NCBI GenBank assembly: GCA_964016885.1
Contig: OZ024743.1
Coordinates: 196,106,001-196,170,000 of the forward strand
DNA length: 64,000 nt
Origin: Eledone cirrhosa
Lineage: Eukaryota
Direction of reading: 5' to 3'
Under the pieces are notes generated by a model that did no database searches, was not told the origin of the DNA, and saw only the letters and a program-made list of their open reading frames with translations. The position numbers and the translations under genes were made by a program. This document shows positions 28,121-62,973 of the stretch, in pieces; position 1 is the first letter of the stretch, and the number at the start of each line of letters is the position of its first letter.

Positions 28121-28300
28121 TATGAAAAGATTCAGGACCCTGACGGCTGAGCTCCAGCCATTTCGACAGCTACATCTAGCTGTCGAAACAGCCAGAGCTC
28201 AGCCGTCCACGTCCTGAATCTGTTCATATTACCTAGTCTACTACTCCAAGTATCGAGTACTCTGGTGGGTTATGCTCCACCTGGTATTTTACCACACCCT
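28121..28300 (+). mobile_element. Fold-back mini-element with the 3' half of a hammerhead (family H1)
   Basis: Imperfect palindrome 28121-28228 beside (TA)n; GAAAC..GCCGTC motif; tail homologous to 37979-38050. Confidence 0.65.
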
Positions 28301-29199
28301 ATCTGAGAGAGAGAGAGAGAAGAAAAAAAATGTGGACGTTAGAAAGCGTTCTATACAGATCATATTATATAAGGCTAAAAGAAAATTGTTTGAAAAGGGC
28401 ACCTGGTATATGTATACACACACACACACACACACATATATATATATATATATATATATATATATATATATATATATATATATATATATGCATATAAAGT
28501 ATCCTTATAATGTGTAAAAAAATTGATGTTAGATATTGATGTTTAGCAAAGCCTACGTTAGCCGTATTGGAATATCAAAATATTTGTTATTAGGCTTTTA
28601 TTTCTCGTTAAAATCCTGCATGCATTACAGAGGAAACAAGCTTTGCTAAAAATCAATTTTTTAACAAATATTTTATAAAAATCCTTTATATATACTAGCT
28701 ATTCTTTTCAAACCCTTTTCTTTCATCATTTTCCTTTTATGTATATATATATTTTTTTTTATATGTATAATGGTTGTTTATATAACCAATTATTTGTTGT
28801 GTGTGTTCTTATGTGTGTGTACGTCAGTTGAGATAACTTCACAAAAAAAATGGATTTGACCGCCATTCAATTGATAAAAGATTTTTTTGTTTTATTTCTT
28901 AAACAGGGGACATCTTGATGTTTACCCCATTACCTGAGGTAGAAAGAAATCTCTGCCTTCAAGACATTTTATTTAATTTTCAAAAACAGTTATTGTTTAC
29001 AAGTTGTTCAAGATGGCTTCTTCTTTATCTTCGGCTGAACATATGCCCCCAAGAATTTCGATAAAACATTTCAAAACAAGAACGCTGAATATAAAAAAAG
29101 AAGACAAGCTGTACACAAAAAAAGATGAGACGAAGCTACAAAATACTGATGTTGTACACAACAATAAGTGACAATTCTAAACACTGGCTCTTGCAGCAG

Positions 29200-29410
29200 T
29201 TGGTAAAATTATTAGATCGTAGGATTTAGTGCTTAACATTATTTCTTTACGACCTTTTACGCCGTGAGTTCAAATCCCACTGATGTTGGCTTTGCTATTA
29301 ATTCTTCCGAGTCGAATAAAATAAATTACCATTTAAGTACTGGGGTCGATTTAATCGACTTACCCATCACCCAATGTTGCTGACTTCCTACCAAAATTAG
29401 TAACCATGGT
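29200..29410 (+). mobile_element. tRNA-derived SINE (diverged)
   Basis: GAGTTCAAATCCC..AGTACTGGGGTCGATTTAATCGAC. Confidence 0.75.
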
Positions 29411-29810
29411 TATTGTTATTACCATCAAGACAAAAACACTGGACGTAGATCAATCACTGAATAAAAAAATAAACGCGAGAGATCTATGTTACGAGGATGA
29501 GTAGGAATACATCTAAGGAAGGACGAAGAAGAAAATAACATAACTCTGTTTGCAAAAAGTTGAGAAAACTAACAGATCACCCCCCCCCCCCATAAACAAT
29601 TGTCATAGTTGTTATAGTTTATCTTTAAGGTGCAGAAAAAGACGTTCGAGCATGAGGAGCTAGTGCATCACACCCCCACTATATATGAGGTGACGGATTA
29701 TAGGAATTTCAGCTGTTATATGTCGTGACCTTGACCTTGGCTCAAATAACTTTTGCAGAGTGTTGAACGCTGGGGAGACAGGAAATATAACATGGCCTGA
29801 CAGTCTAGGT

Positions 29811-32269
29811 CACAGGTTCTGAACCCATTTAGGCCAAACGTCCCCTTTTGTCCCTTGAAATCACGAAACGCCCCCTACCCTATTTTCTCATTTTTCAATA
29901 TACTACTGATTTTGATATCAGGAGATTACTAAAAATTGATTTACAATATTCCAAAGATACCATTGCAGGCAGCTGAGAGTATAAATACATTCCTTGAAAG
30001 GAAATATATAAATTTCAAAAAAAGGAACATAAATGTTCTTTTTTGTGAATAAGGACCAGTTGAATTTGTTATATTCCCACAGGCGATACCAGCTACTTTG
30101 AACATTTATACAAGAGCAACTCTATGTATCCAAAGAGTGCTCTTATCTGGAAGAAAGTGGCAATTGTATCATTTCAAAGCTTTCCAATTTTCCCTTTAAT
30201 GAAACGGACAGAATGAATGTTGATATCTAACTTGATGCCCCCTCCGCTTTGTGAGCTTAGAGACCATGGAAGAGGGTTTTCATGACCATATAAGAGGGTA
30301 TAATTATTAGTAAATGGTAAAATATATACAACAAATGAGTAAGTGAATTGTTATAGATGGTTTCCAGTTCAGTCAGACTGCAACTAAAAATAAAAAAATT
30401 GTTAGTTTGCTTTGTAACAATAGTATATCCAAGTTTTCGGATGAATCAACTTACGGATGAATCAACTTACTTTGACCTCATTTCAATGGAACCCTTGAGC
30501 TTCATGGTGTCTAGCTAACTCTTTGACGTGAGGCTGAATTTTCCTAAGATGTAGCTAGGGATCTCCACGTGTAATTACATTGTAGCGGTTGCGAGCCTTA
30601 CTGTGCAGTCTGGAAACGGCACCAAACCTCTTCTCGACTAAGTATGAGCTTGGAAAAGGCAGAGCAAATCTCTTAGCCTCTGCATGTAGGAGTGGAAATC
30701 GACGCTGAATTTCCTCTTGCATCCAAAAAAGTGGTTTATCTATTTTGGGAAATATAATTTTGATCATGTCATCTGCTTGAAGTTCAATGAATTCTTCCTG
30801 AAATTTAACGTCCAAATTGTCAATGTTAGCTATGAGGGATCTGCTAACCACATTAGGATGTCCATCGGCAAAAGGTCGACAAACCGTTCTCTCATGTTGT
30901 CTTGTAGCGCACGAAGGTGAGCTGTATAAATTTGGAGTTGGTAATCGCTTACAATGTTTTGAGCATATGCGACACTAGTAAAATTATAGAATTCCCGTCA
31001 ATTAAGAATCCTTTCGATGACATTCAATTTGTCCAGGAATGTTTTCACAATATTCCTTGCTTTAAGCAAAGTGATCTTCTTCCCCTGCAAAGCCATAATG
31101 ACGCTATTGCATTTGTCGAAGATGTCCACGAGGTAGGCGCAATCTTGCCTCGCATCGAGGGTTTTCTTGTACAGTTATTGTTGTGTCTTCGAAGAAACTC
31201 AATGATAGAGTCGAACAGTTCAAAGAAGTGAGTAAGGCATTTGCTCTTTGAAAACCACCTCACTTCATTATGAAGGAGCAACTTGACGAATTATTCGTCA
31301 TTATCTTAGCACAGTTGCCGGAAAATTCGTTCATTGAGGGCATGGCATTTGATAACATTGATGAGATCAATGGCTACCTGCAAGGACTTGCTCAGCGACT
31401 CGCTGAGTTTCTTCGCAGCCAAGTGTTGTCGATGAATGACACAATGAACAGAAAATACAGATAGACTTTCTCTCTTCAGAAGAGTGATGAAACCCTTATG
31501 TGGCCGACCATTGCTCTTGCGTCGTCCGTAGCACATGATGCAATTTGTTTTGTATGTAGTTCTAGATATATGTATTACCTGCTTATGTATTGCATGTGGT
31601 CCCAGCTGTATGTATTACCTGCTTGTGTGTTGTATGTGGTCCTAGATGTGTGTATTACCTCCTTATATGCTGTATGCGGTCCTAGGTGTGTGTACTGATT
31701 TTGTATTGTATGTGGTCCTAGATGTGTGTGCTACCTAATTATGTGTTGTATGTGGTCCTAGATGTGTGTATTACCTGCTTATGTGTTGTATGTGGTCCTA
31801 GATGTGTGTGCTACCCGCTTCTGTGTATTTTCTTTTCTTTTTTATTTGTAATATTATTTATACAATAGCGAATAAAATAGATCTACATAGTGTTAACGCG
31901 TTACGTTGAATCAATAATTTCAGACATGAAATACATTGTTATCGGTGAAGGAAAGACAAGATTCTAACTGGCTGCGCTTAAAGTGTCCTTGGCCCAGTTG
32001 ACTGTGGGCTTTTCCATTTTTAGGATCTCAATTGCCGGTTAATGCATAGACACGCCTGCACACCTGCTCACAGCTGCGGTCAGACCATAGTTATGTTGTC
32101 TATATGCTCATTCAATTGCATTCACACTGGCTGTCTGAGATACATAGAAATATGGCTTACAAAACTTACCAAAGTAAAGAGCCTTCCACCCCCCAACCCA
32201 ACCCCACCCCCACCACCCCATTCCAAAACGTCCCCCAGGGGTGCATATGCCACTCGTTGAGAAACTTTG
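29811..32269 (-). mobile_element. hAT Buster/Charlie DNA transposon remnant
   Basis: TIRs CACAGGTTCTGAAC / CAAAGTTTCTCAAC; 8-bp TSD GTCTAGGT (29803-29810) / GTCTAGAT (32270-32277); transposase relics HCVIHRQHLAAK, LLHNEVRWFSK, LPFPSSYLVEK (30555-31536). Confidence 0.85.
31550..31828. repeat. 40-bp minisatellite, about 7 copies
   Basis: TGTGGTCCTA recurs at 31711, 31751 and 31791. Confidence 0.9.
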
Positions 32270-61430: not shown

Positions 61431-61750
61431 TATATAAGATCAAAAGATGGTTAAATGAGTTCCATGTATTTTATTATGCGCATTTCAAAAACAAATATCA
61501 TCATGCAATAACATTTGTGTTTTCATCAGATAAAATAGGAGGACATGATATGAAGGTTAAAAAACACTTGTGGATAGTGCAGTTTTAAATCAACATATCT
61601 GCACTATCCACAAGTGTTTTTTAACCTTCATATCATATCCTCCTATTTTATCTGATGAAAACACAAATGTTATTGCATGATGATATTTGTTTTTGAAATG
61701 CGCATAATAAAATACATGGAACTCATTTAACCATCTTTTGATCTTATATA
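61431..61750. ncRNA. 320-bp fold-back with two canonical hammerheads: 61644-61714 (+) and 61467-61537 (-)
   Basis: TATTTTAT-CTGATGA-long stem II-GAAA-TGCGCA-TA-ATAAAATA; 8-bp stem I and palindromic stem III. Confidence 0.85.
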
Positions 61751-62331
61751 TTATGTATACTCCAGTCCTACAAACTGTAGAGTGCTTCTTATCCGATATC
61801 TGCATTGCTTTATTGTACTACAATAAAACTCACCTCCTACATATATATATATATATATATATATATATATATGTGTGTGTGTGTGTGTGTGTGTGTGTGT
61901 GTGTGTGTGTGTGTGTGTGTGTGTGTGTGTGTGTGTGTGTGTGTGTGTGTGTGTGTGTGTGTGTGTATATATACTTCGTCTTTTAATTTGTTTTGCTAGA
62001 TTTCTTATCTGAAAACGCACGCACCCATGATTTTCAATTCAGAAACAAGATGGTGTAGGACAGAACAAAGGAGAGACACAAAATAAAGACCCAGTCACTA
62101 AGGAGGTCACAGAATGTGTGACGAAACAGCTTTGACAATATATTAACAACCATCCGGTTATTGAACCAACCAACCGGAAATTTGTAATAAATTGAAATGA
62201 AAATCGACAGGTTCGTGTGTTTTTATTGGCAGCTTGACCATCCCAAAGTATAACAATGTATATACATACACATATATATATACAGTGTTTAGGCAACCAC
62301 GTCACCTTTTTTGTTCAACACTGACAGAGGA

Positions 62332-62374
62332 ACGATGGACTAGTTTCAAGCTTATTAGCTATCGTCAGCATCGT
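62332..62374 (-). ncRNA. Minimal hammerhead ribozyme
   Basis: ACGATG-CTGACGA-T-AGCT-AATA-AGCT-T-GAAA-CTAG-TC-CATCGT. Confidence 0.88.
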
Positions 62375-62881
62375 ATACCTTCCTGCCAGATGGTTGAACG
62401 TCTGAAAGTATATACTTTCCTTATGCATATTAACGGCTGAGCAGCCTAATTTGCATATCGAGTGAGTTCAGTCCGCCGGGCGCACCGAAAACGATAAATG
62501 GAATAGAATGAAACGAAATTTCATTTCTCACTCTTAGTACGGCACTTACTTAAATGTAAGTATGTATGTATGTATACGTACATACATATATGTATACAGA
62601 CGTACAGTAGTATGTATATATATACATACATGCACACATATATATATGCACGTATCGGTTTACCGAACATTTATTATAATGCTCGGTTTGTTTGTTTGTA
62701 AACAAACAAACAGCCCGAATTACGCCGTACAGTTCATTCTATTCCATTTATATATATATATATATATATATATATGAATGTATATATAGTGTATTTGGCA
62801 ATACACTGTATGATTAATTAAAAGCATTTCGAAGACCTTACGCTATTGTTTTAGAGTAGTGACAGTCTCACTTACTTTAAA

Positions 62882-62973
62882 TTTTCAGCAAACAGGGGAG
62901 TTAAAGCTGACAGAGCTCTGTTTCGTACTGATTCGTACTTATCAAAGCCAAGTACCCACCTGTTTGCTGAAAA
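62882..62973 (-). ncRNA. Hammerhead ribozyme (U3-A8 variant) with extended stem I
   Basis: GGCT-TTGATAA-GTAC-GAATCA-GTAC-GAAA-CAGAGCTCTG-TC-AGCT (62905-62949), closed by a 15-bp helix 62882-62896/62959-62973. Confidence 0.82.

Follow-up and report, generated by a model that had tools for sequence, protein, structure and literature searches.

Hammerhead-bearing stubs of Penelope-like elements in the Eledone cirrhosa genome: probable products of twin priming on one RNA

To obtain insight into the short hammerhead-bearing repeats of Eledone cirrhosa, we followed up in silico an initial annotation of a 64-kb stretch (the window; assembly GCA_964016885.1, contig OZ024743.1, positions 196,106,001 to 196,170,000) of this 3.0-Gb genome. 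The annotation had described at least eight unrelated families of tiny units, often folded back, and had proposed that they are either retrozyme-like or extremely truncated products of Penelope-like elements (PLEs), made by snap-back synthesis at (TA)n arrays. We find that the units are almost certainly PLE 3' ends and retrozyme-like units, and that the two-armed stubs were probably made by twin priming, in which one RNA is copied from both cut strands of the target (probability about 0.65). The families are named here by their positions in the window: F1 (28121/37827), F2 (39430/59681), F3 (47100 and 47715), F4 (59430/62093), F5 (61644), F6 (62332), F7 (62905) and F8 (46878).

The evidence for twin priming lies in the geometry of the stubs. 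In all hairpins the 3' ends point outward, and each family has two such ends, a short and a long (tailed) one, about 40-100 bp apart. Head-to-head pairs of F1, F2, F3, F5 and F8 were classified by their ends (n=198, F4 excluded; some loci duplicate each other, e.g. L013/L015): 157 of the 161 classifiable pairs had one long and one short end (p 2e-41 against an expectation of one half), four were short-short and none was long-long, while 37 of the 198 were left unclassified. This one-tail rule held at 58/60 non-targeted loci (not fetched for the family in question) and is obeyed by PLE1, one of two PLEs in the window; for F4, F6 and F7, scored by eye in 16, 33 and 22 rows respectively and only where both ends were readable, it held in 8/8, 19/22 and 9/10. 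At the other end, the tail-less arm reached further 5' by at least 15 nt in 68 pairs and the tailed arm in 14, and the two lay within 15 nt of each other in 75; in 20 pairs the tailed arm consisted of the tail only and the arms did not overlap. If the second arm were a copy of the first, it could not contain anything that the first lacks; hence neither snap-back nor self-priming of an antisense RNA (proposed in PMC3846280) can yield the 68 pairs unless trimming follows. The proposal of snap-back at TA arrays thus founders on these pairs, each arm of which holds sequence absent from the other, and on the lack of any long-long pair. Moreover, 18 of 72 near-equal junctions have a loop of 0-2 nt (8 without a loop, 10 with 1-2 nt), which forms more easily through annealing of two ends than through folding of one. 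Any target-site duplication would be hidden inside the TA arrays.

Both arms appear to derive from a single RNA. Among the eight references tested, 213 arm junctions joined copies of the same family and none joined two families, and the arms, 3-10% diverged from each other, are closer than random copies in four of six families (F1, F4, F5, F8); together these observations point to one RNA. The divergence between arms is near that between loci in F2 (5.1 v 5.4%) and F3 (10.5 v 11.8%). Over five families, 110 rare variants occur in both arms and 429 in one arm only.

In the mechanism that we propose, both strands of a TA array would be nicked by the PLE endonuclease, and the two free ends would then serve as primers for copying of the same RNA into DNA, each from one of two fixed start sites that flank the tail; one start site per strand would account for the one-tail rule. 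The inner primer, with a head start, would usually run further, the outer primer would follow and displace the inner product, and the two complementary DNAs (cDNAs) would be joined through their 3' ends. Both products may often reach the capped 5' end of an RNA whose start, in the terminal repeat, coincides with the ribozyme or lies just before it, and such a start would explain the tiny size of the units. In L1 twin priming, both target ends prime on one RNA and the 5' part becomes inverted; in the stubs, by contrast, the position of the second start is fixed, and because the arms mostly overlap, the outcome is not a simple inversion but an inverted repeat. The ribozyme would be a passenger in the stubs, whose templates would read through the uncut site, whereas the ribozymes of F6 and F7 arrays are predicted to cut as dimers into monomers, like known retrozymes. 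In vitro, a PLE protein, for which a dimer is predicted, cuts and extends both strands, HHR (hammerhead ribozyme) cleavage being dispensable; two internal reverse transcriptase (RT) start sites bound the tail, and uncut RNA is used (PMC11167929). More tentatively, at slightly less than even odds, we suggest that the PLE enzyme acts as a dimer and always starts two copies on one RNA, one from each target strand, the two fixed start positions lying next to a common tail hairpin, that 5'-proximal priming copies a capped segment of 130-280 nt including the cap G and so yields about 10^5 hammerheads, and that retrozyme arrays lacking open reading frames (ORFs) are integrated likewise.

The 5' stop points of the tail-less arms are consistent with such a capped RNA. 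Counted from C3 of the ribozyme core in one natural reference copy per family, they fall at -6 to +15 in 42/45 arms of F3, at -73 to -67 in 15/23 of F5 and at -96 to -74 in 21/33 of F8, a clustering that is biased upward by the targeted loci. Longer copies of F3 carry a TATA box 29-31 nt upstream of the stop point (20/25), and in the copies that stop there a G replaces the genomic C in 10 of the 14 in which the partner arm cannot supply the G (p 2e-5; 26/32 overall); an extra G was likewise found in F5 (4/6, p 0.012). An added G at the 5' end of a retrocopy is a known mark of a copied cap. Many stubs thus likely reproduce in full the initial 130-280 nt of an RNA begun in the terminal repeat, whether an element mRNA primed at 5'-proximal start sites or a short transcript of a solo end. 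A 5'-end cluster of F1 at +37 to +50, in part a subfamily difference from the reference, was left out of account. None of 157 tail-less arms ended within 4 nt of the predicted cleavage site, a test informative only for F5 and F8 (0/56), where such arms are long enough to find. Furthermore, the idea that the hairpins would self-cleave on both strands fared poorly: in the predicted folds of all three window hairpins with a whole core, every core base is paired on both strands, and the antisense arm is transcribed first, whichever strand is read. Cleavage there seems unlikely from these models, and ribozyme activity would be expected in the source elements and the F6/F7 arrays rather than in hairpins.

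The link of the units to PLEs was borne out: five of the eight families are collinear elsewhere in the genome with RT/GIY-YIG ORFs. The two origins that had been offered as alternatives each hold, for different families; judged by sequence, F1, F2, F4, F5 and F8 are extremely truncated PLE 3' ends, and F6 and F7 retrozyme-like units. Upstream of F1, F2, F5 and F8 lies a 3' untranslated region (UTR) of 0.9-1.5 kb, preceded by ORFs with RT motifs and a GIY-YIG-like domain (F1 at loci L252 and L253; F2 at L249-L251 and L260; F5 at L246 and L248; F8 at L297/L298 and L316/L317). These parents have a CxCX5C linker before GIY-YIG, no CCHH, and CxxC and CxH around a conserved E and N; we label them Hydra-type because a CxCX5C linker without the CCHH cysteines defines the Hydra clade (PMC8557442). 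A Nematis-like label first given to the four was dropped on comparison with this clade definition. In the Atlas clusters nearest to the F1 parent, RVT_1 occurs in 17% and HTH_animal in 14-63% of members, which serves as a lead only; the Neptune-type proteins of the window, used as query, did not retrieve the F1 parent ORF, and no solved structure matched. The parent of F4 (L241-L244, L259) is of Neptune/Nematis type: its ORFs gave weak RVT_1 and GIY-YIG matches below cut-off and are often flanked by two inverted F4 ends 2-5 kb apart, and a CX2-5CxxC linker with two cysteines within GIY-YIG is present in it as in PLE1 and PLE2, a motif that is common to Neptune and Nematis and does not separate the two.

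F6 and F7 form head-to-tail arrays (4 x 445 bp at L254 and L255; 3 x 320 bp at L256 and L257) that have no adjoining ORF and carry one type I HHR per monomer; no PLE parent sequence was found for either. The F6 copy of the window is one permuted monomer and therefore needs a tandem or circular template. The F6 monomer junction was found in sequencing runs of two studies, and contigs of three runs, which have no bearing on expression, cover F6. The units of F3 (about 450 bp) have a common 5' border after a TA run in 18/30 copies; the family may be non-autonomous, or an internal TA run may have been the point at which a long 3' UTR was captured. The tails of F1, F2, F3, F5 and F8 have a small hairpin, which in each of the five reference copies begins no more than 5 nt from the short end and in F2 shows a compensatory change; it links the ORF-less F3 to the Hydra-type elements.

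Several observations weigh against twin priming or its individual steps. The 14 pairs with the longer tailed arm are also compatible with snap-back. Within the window itself, the F4 hairpin and the 47088/47715 pair break the one-tail rule, and 70 bp of the left flank of the F4 hairpin recur inverted at 59489-59558, a hint of some fold-back templated by DNA. No collinear ORF was found for F3 in 30 upstream-extended copies, nor was an F3 tandem junction when searched for, and none of the three Hydra-type ORF pieces submitted to Pfam gave a match. For the extra G, F2 (2/7) and F8 (0/1) do not reach significance, the stop positions for that test were picked after inspection, and a short master copy with a G at the stop would look alike.

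The alternative that survives best, though we consider it unlikely, is that one cDNA folds back, or an antisense RNA primes itself, to give a two-tailed hairpin that loses one tail to the endonuclease, cut at a fixed site, at integration. Self-priming has been proposed (PMC3846280), as have endonuclease-made tails (PMC8557442); trimming of the first strand would leave the tail-less arm further 5', as in 68 of 82 pairs, and variants common to both arms would follow, although one RNA template predicts these too. The 14 opposite pairs, the loopless and 1-2-nt junctions and the tail bounded in vitro by two RT start sites (PMC11167929) speak against it. That two separate RNAs, one per RT subunit, are copied from the two target ends is very unlikely: the tail-out geometry would be the same and the arm divergence in F2 and F3 would fit, but mixed-family pairs are lacking among the eight references tested, the arms of F1, F4, F5 and F8 resemble each other more than random copies do, and the one-tail rule is not explained by itself. 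Plain snap-back, with the second arm a DNA copy of the first, is hardly probable; near-perfect hairpins, the inverted 70-bp flank and the longer tailed arms agree with it, against which stand the private sequence of each arm in 68 pairs, the 20 pairs without overlap and the absence of two-tailed hairpins. Finally, miniature inverted-repeat transposable element (MITE)-like DNA transposons, later inversions at fragile TA arrays or assembly artefacts can be dismissed with near certainty: terminal inverted repeats, TA flanks and a true MITE-like unit at 58984-59125 recall them, but the hairpins lack the symmetric terminal inverted repeats and fixed interior of MITEs, their outer ends being fixed and asymmetric and their inner junctions variable, and collinear RT ORFs, arms diverged by 3-10% and the F6 monomer junction in runs of two studies argue otherwise.

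The hammerheads on which the initial annotation rested were confirmed by descriptor and sequence reading, a whole or partial type I motif being present at 11/11 of the coordinates it had named. A canonical core is found in the whole HHRs at 59430 (+), 61644 (both arms) and 62332 (-), a U3:A8 covariant core at 62905 (-), a U4-to-A core common to F2 at 39430 (both arms) and 59681, and G5 changed to A at 62093. The motifs are partial at 28121 and 37827, where only the GAAA/stem III half is kept, and at 46878 and 47100, where C3 is missing together with stem I's 5' strand; the halves absent there occur in longer genomic copies, and genomic copies of all eight families have the core boxes and stems I and II in type I order. 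The U3:A8 core, a natural covariation (PMC4209133), is used by F1, F7 and PLE1, and A stands at position 4 throughout F2. The T-T pair closing stem II at its base, described as recurrent, is present in F2, F3, F6 and PLE1 but not in the other families; likewise, the palindromic loop 3, which could allow dimer folding, was recovered in F1, F3, F5, F6, F7, PLE1 and PLE2 but not in F4. The unit limits had to be redrawn, since the 61644 unit runs to 61840 and the 28121, 37827 and 39430 units carry a one-sided tail. A strict descriptor (core canonical or U3:A8; stems I and II of at least 4 bp each) gave 3 matches in 28001-63200, where 40 block shuffles averaged 0.075 and never exceeded 1, and a looser one gave 5 in the window. 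The Rfam search that had been suggested as a check returned no hammerhead among the best 150 of 234 window matches, nor among all 56 in 62040-63100; the microRNA matches were hairpins and microsatellites below gathering score. In predicted monomer folds stem II forms and a clean three-way junction does not. The F7 ribozyme sits on a perfect 15-bp stem I extension (62876-62978), which could, on this model, allow folding as a monomer. In addition, a 250-bp palindrome at 58626-58878, with an apparent 3' half hammerhead in its right arm, is possibly a ninth family.

The dense HHR population claimed for the window proved real and ordinary for the genome. In 40 evenly spaced stretches of 10 kb (400 kb), the strict descriptor gave 18 matches against 1 in the same DNA read backwards, and the looser one 38 against 1. 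The density of intact HHRs is about 45 per Mb (bootstrap 20-72), which extrapolates to about 135,000 in the genome (95% range 60,000-217,000); that of the window is not a local enrichment. A first look gave 259-1689 candidates per family, which are not copy numbers, and exact patterns occurred 689 times for F3 and 338 times for F8 (reversed control 0). The (TA)n flanks were also corroborated: 304/390 non-targeted matches have a TA run no more than 24 nt from their 3' end, against 9.8% of random positions, a figure that overstates the enrichment, as matches sit in TA-rich flanks. The 400 kb also held at least six further hammerhead families (L323-L355), several of them as opposite-strand pairs 2-5 kb apart.

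Elements of the window, with coordinates, arms and sequence features.
Element	Coordinates	Strand or arms	Features
F1 subfamily b, two-armed stub	28123..28303	tail-less arm (-), then tailed arm (+), tail from 28227	HHR 3' half only; (TA)n 28101-28122 to left; 78% to 37930-38036 copy
F1, two-armed stub	37827..38057	tail-less arm 37827-37897 (-), tailed arm 37896-38057 (+)	truncation in stem II loop; 3' end of Hydra-type PLE
F2, two-armed stub	39413..39630	tail-less arm (-), tailed arm (+)	whole HHR with A at position 4 in each arm; 3' end of Hydra-type PLE
PLE1, 5'-truncated Neptune/Nematis-type element	44329..45958	(-)	GIY-YIG remnant 45026-45499; U3:A8 HHR about 44570-44615; tail 44329-44378 (tail present in 7/20 PLE1 copies); inverted tail-less arm 45771-45958
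F8, single tail-less arm	46878..46976	(+)	cut within HHR core; 3' end of Hydra-type PLE
F3, single tail-less arm	47088..47144	(-)	begins at core U4
F7 relative, very short two-armed stub	47604..47687	tail on right arm	no HHR remaining
F3, single tail-less arm	47715..47771	(+)	inverted relative to 47088-47144
PLE2, near full-length Neptune/Nematis-type element	49431..54523	(+); inverted arms: short 49431-49578, long 49588-50568	three arms; ORF pieces 50555-52856; variant HHR about 53817-53856, C at position 13
F4, two-armed stub	59279..59474		both outer ends non-standard, adjoining HHR; whole HHR 59430-59474 (+); 3' end of an RT/GIY-YIG PLE
F2, single tail-less arm	59681..59752	(+)	whole variant HHR
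F5, two-armed stub	61437..61840	tail-less arm 61437-61598 (-), tailed arm 61599-61840 (+)	whole HHR in each arm; 3' end of Hydra-type PLE
F4 subfamily b	61975..62265	inverted tail-only arm (about 61975-62035), tail-less arm 62041-62265 (+)	core G5 to A
F6	62281..62748	(-)	one circularly permuted 445-bp monomer; whole HHR 62332-62374; 16-nt inverted arm derived from long end
F7	62776..63083	(-)	near-complete 320-bp monomer; whole U3:A8 HHR 62905-62950; tail-less end

Of the two PLEs of the window, to which a common architecture had been ascribed, PLE2 needs correction: it has three arms, and its ribozyme has C at position 13. About 550 bp past the short end of PLE2 (53974-54523) are copied in its long inverted arm (49588-50137) with 99% identity, either by 3' transduction or as a read-through transcript re-inserted at its own 5' end. 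The MITE-like unit measures 142 bp, and the 35 and 70 bp at its right end recur inverted at 59188-59222 and 59489-59558, around the F4 hairpin, which suggests DNA-templated fold-back across the TA array. A cluster of retrotransposons without long terminal repeats (non-LTR) and with long RT frames spans 1511-23232; nested in it is 4602-9645, which by its motifs we take to be an L1/Tx1-like element. A dispersed SINE-like family has many copies (26141-26770, 33228-33411, 36576-36760, 55536-55686, 63283-63460). No host exon reached the Pfam cut-off in the 105 of 164 listed frames scanned, which short exons could escape.

Part of this picture is already in print, namely opposite-strand HHR pairs, the inverted copy with a one-sided tail and TA bias, and the partnership of retrozymes with PLEs. 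Minimal hammerheads of PLEs, and opposite-strand pairs from truncated PLEs, were described by Cervera and de la Pena (2014, PMC4209133); the metazoan motifs reported there have the same type I core, tiny palindromic loop 3, U3:A8 variant and extra base before stem II, with thousands of solo motifs and opposite-strand pairs 100-700 bp apart. Unlike the motifs described there, several families here show a T-T pair, have a long stem II or form a stable stem III, and our count of about 135,000 compares with about 4,000 in coelacanth and about 9,000 in Xenopus, obtained with a different descriptor. Insertions of endonuclease-positive PLEs (Craig 2021, PMC8557442; Arkhipova 2013, PMC3846280) show the same inverted, 5'-truncated head-to-head copy, tail at one end and TA targets, and the Hydra clade has the same CxCX5C linker without CCHH as the four parents here. 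Tails of 30-40 bp are given in these papers against about 40-100 bp here, and the tail is described as optional or often one-sided, whereas here it is one-sided in 157/161; the origin of the head-to-head repeats and one-sided tail is treated there as an open question, for which, unlike twin priming here, self-priming or endonuclease resolution is proposed. The PAc Poseidon element (Frangieh 2024, PMC11167929) has the same two RT starts downstream of the HHR, AT-rich target and uncut template; it belongs to another clade, and its two starts are not tied, as described, to the two arms of one insertion. Non-LTR retrozymes (PMC7229834; bioRxiv 10.64898/2026.07.22.740005) resemble F6 and F7 as ORF-less tandem monomers of 300-450 bp with one type I HHR each, and have been presented as non-autonomous partners of PLEs (bioRxiv 10.64898/2026.07.22.740005); unlike the retrozymes described there, the F6/F7 arrays bear the PLE integration footprint itself (inverted arm, one-sided tail). 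No twin-priming model for PLEs was found in the literature searched, outside which most subscription papers lie, and the supplement of the retrozyme preprint might treat inverted arms; the main text of a 2026 octopus repeat annotation (PMC13282606) contains neither 'ribozyme' nor 'palindrom'. What is added here is how strictly one arm alone is tailed, which arm reaches further, that no pair mixes families, the stop with TATA box and extra G, and the same footprint on ORF-less arrays.

The counts lead to a pointed prediction about the existing in vitro system: a single product should involve two primers, two start sites and one RNA. They also provide a structural link between retrozymes and PLE enzymes; if the dimeric form of twin priming holds true, it would prove on structural grounds that the retrozymes of animals are carried by PLE enzymes, and it would take the place of the self-priming model. 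Moreover, retroelement stubs may account for many of the short palindromes with TA flanks that carry a MITE annotation in such genomes.

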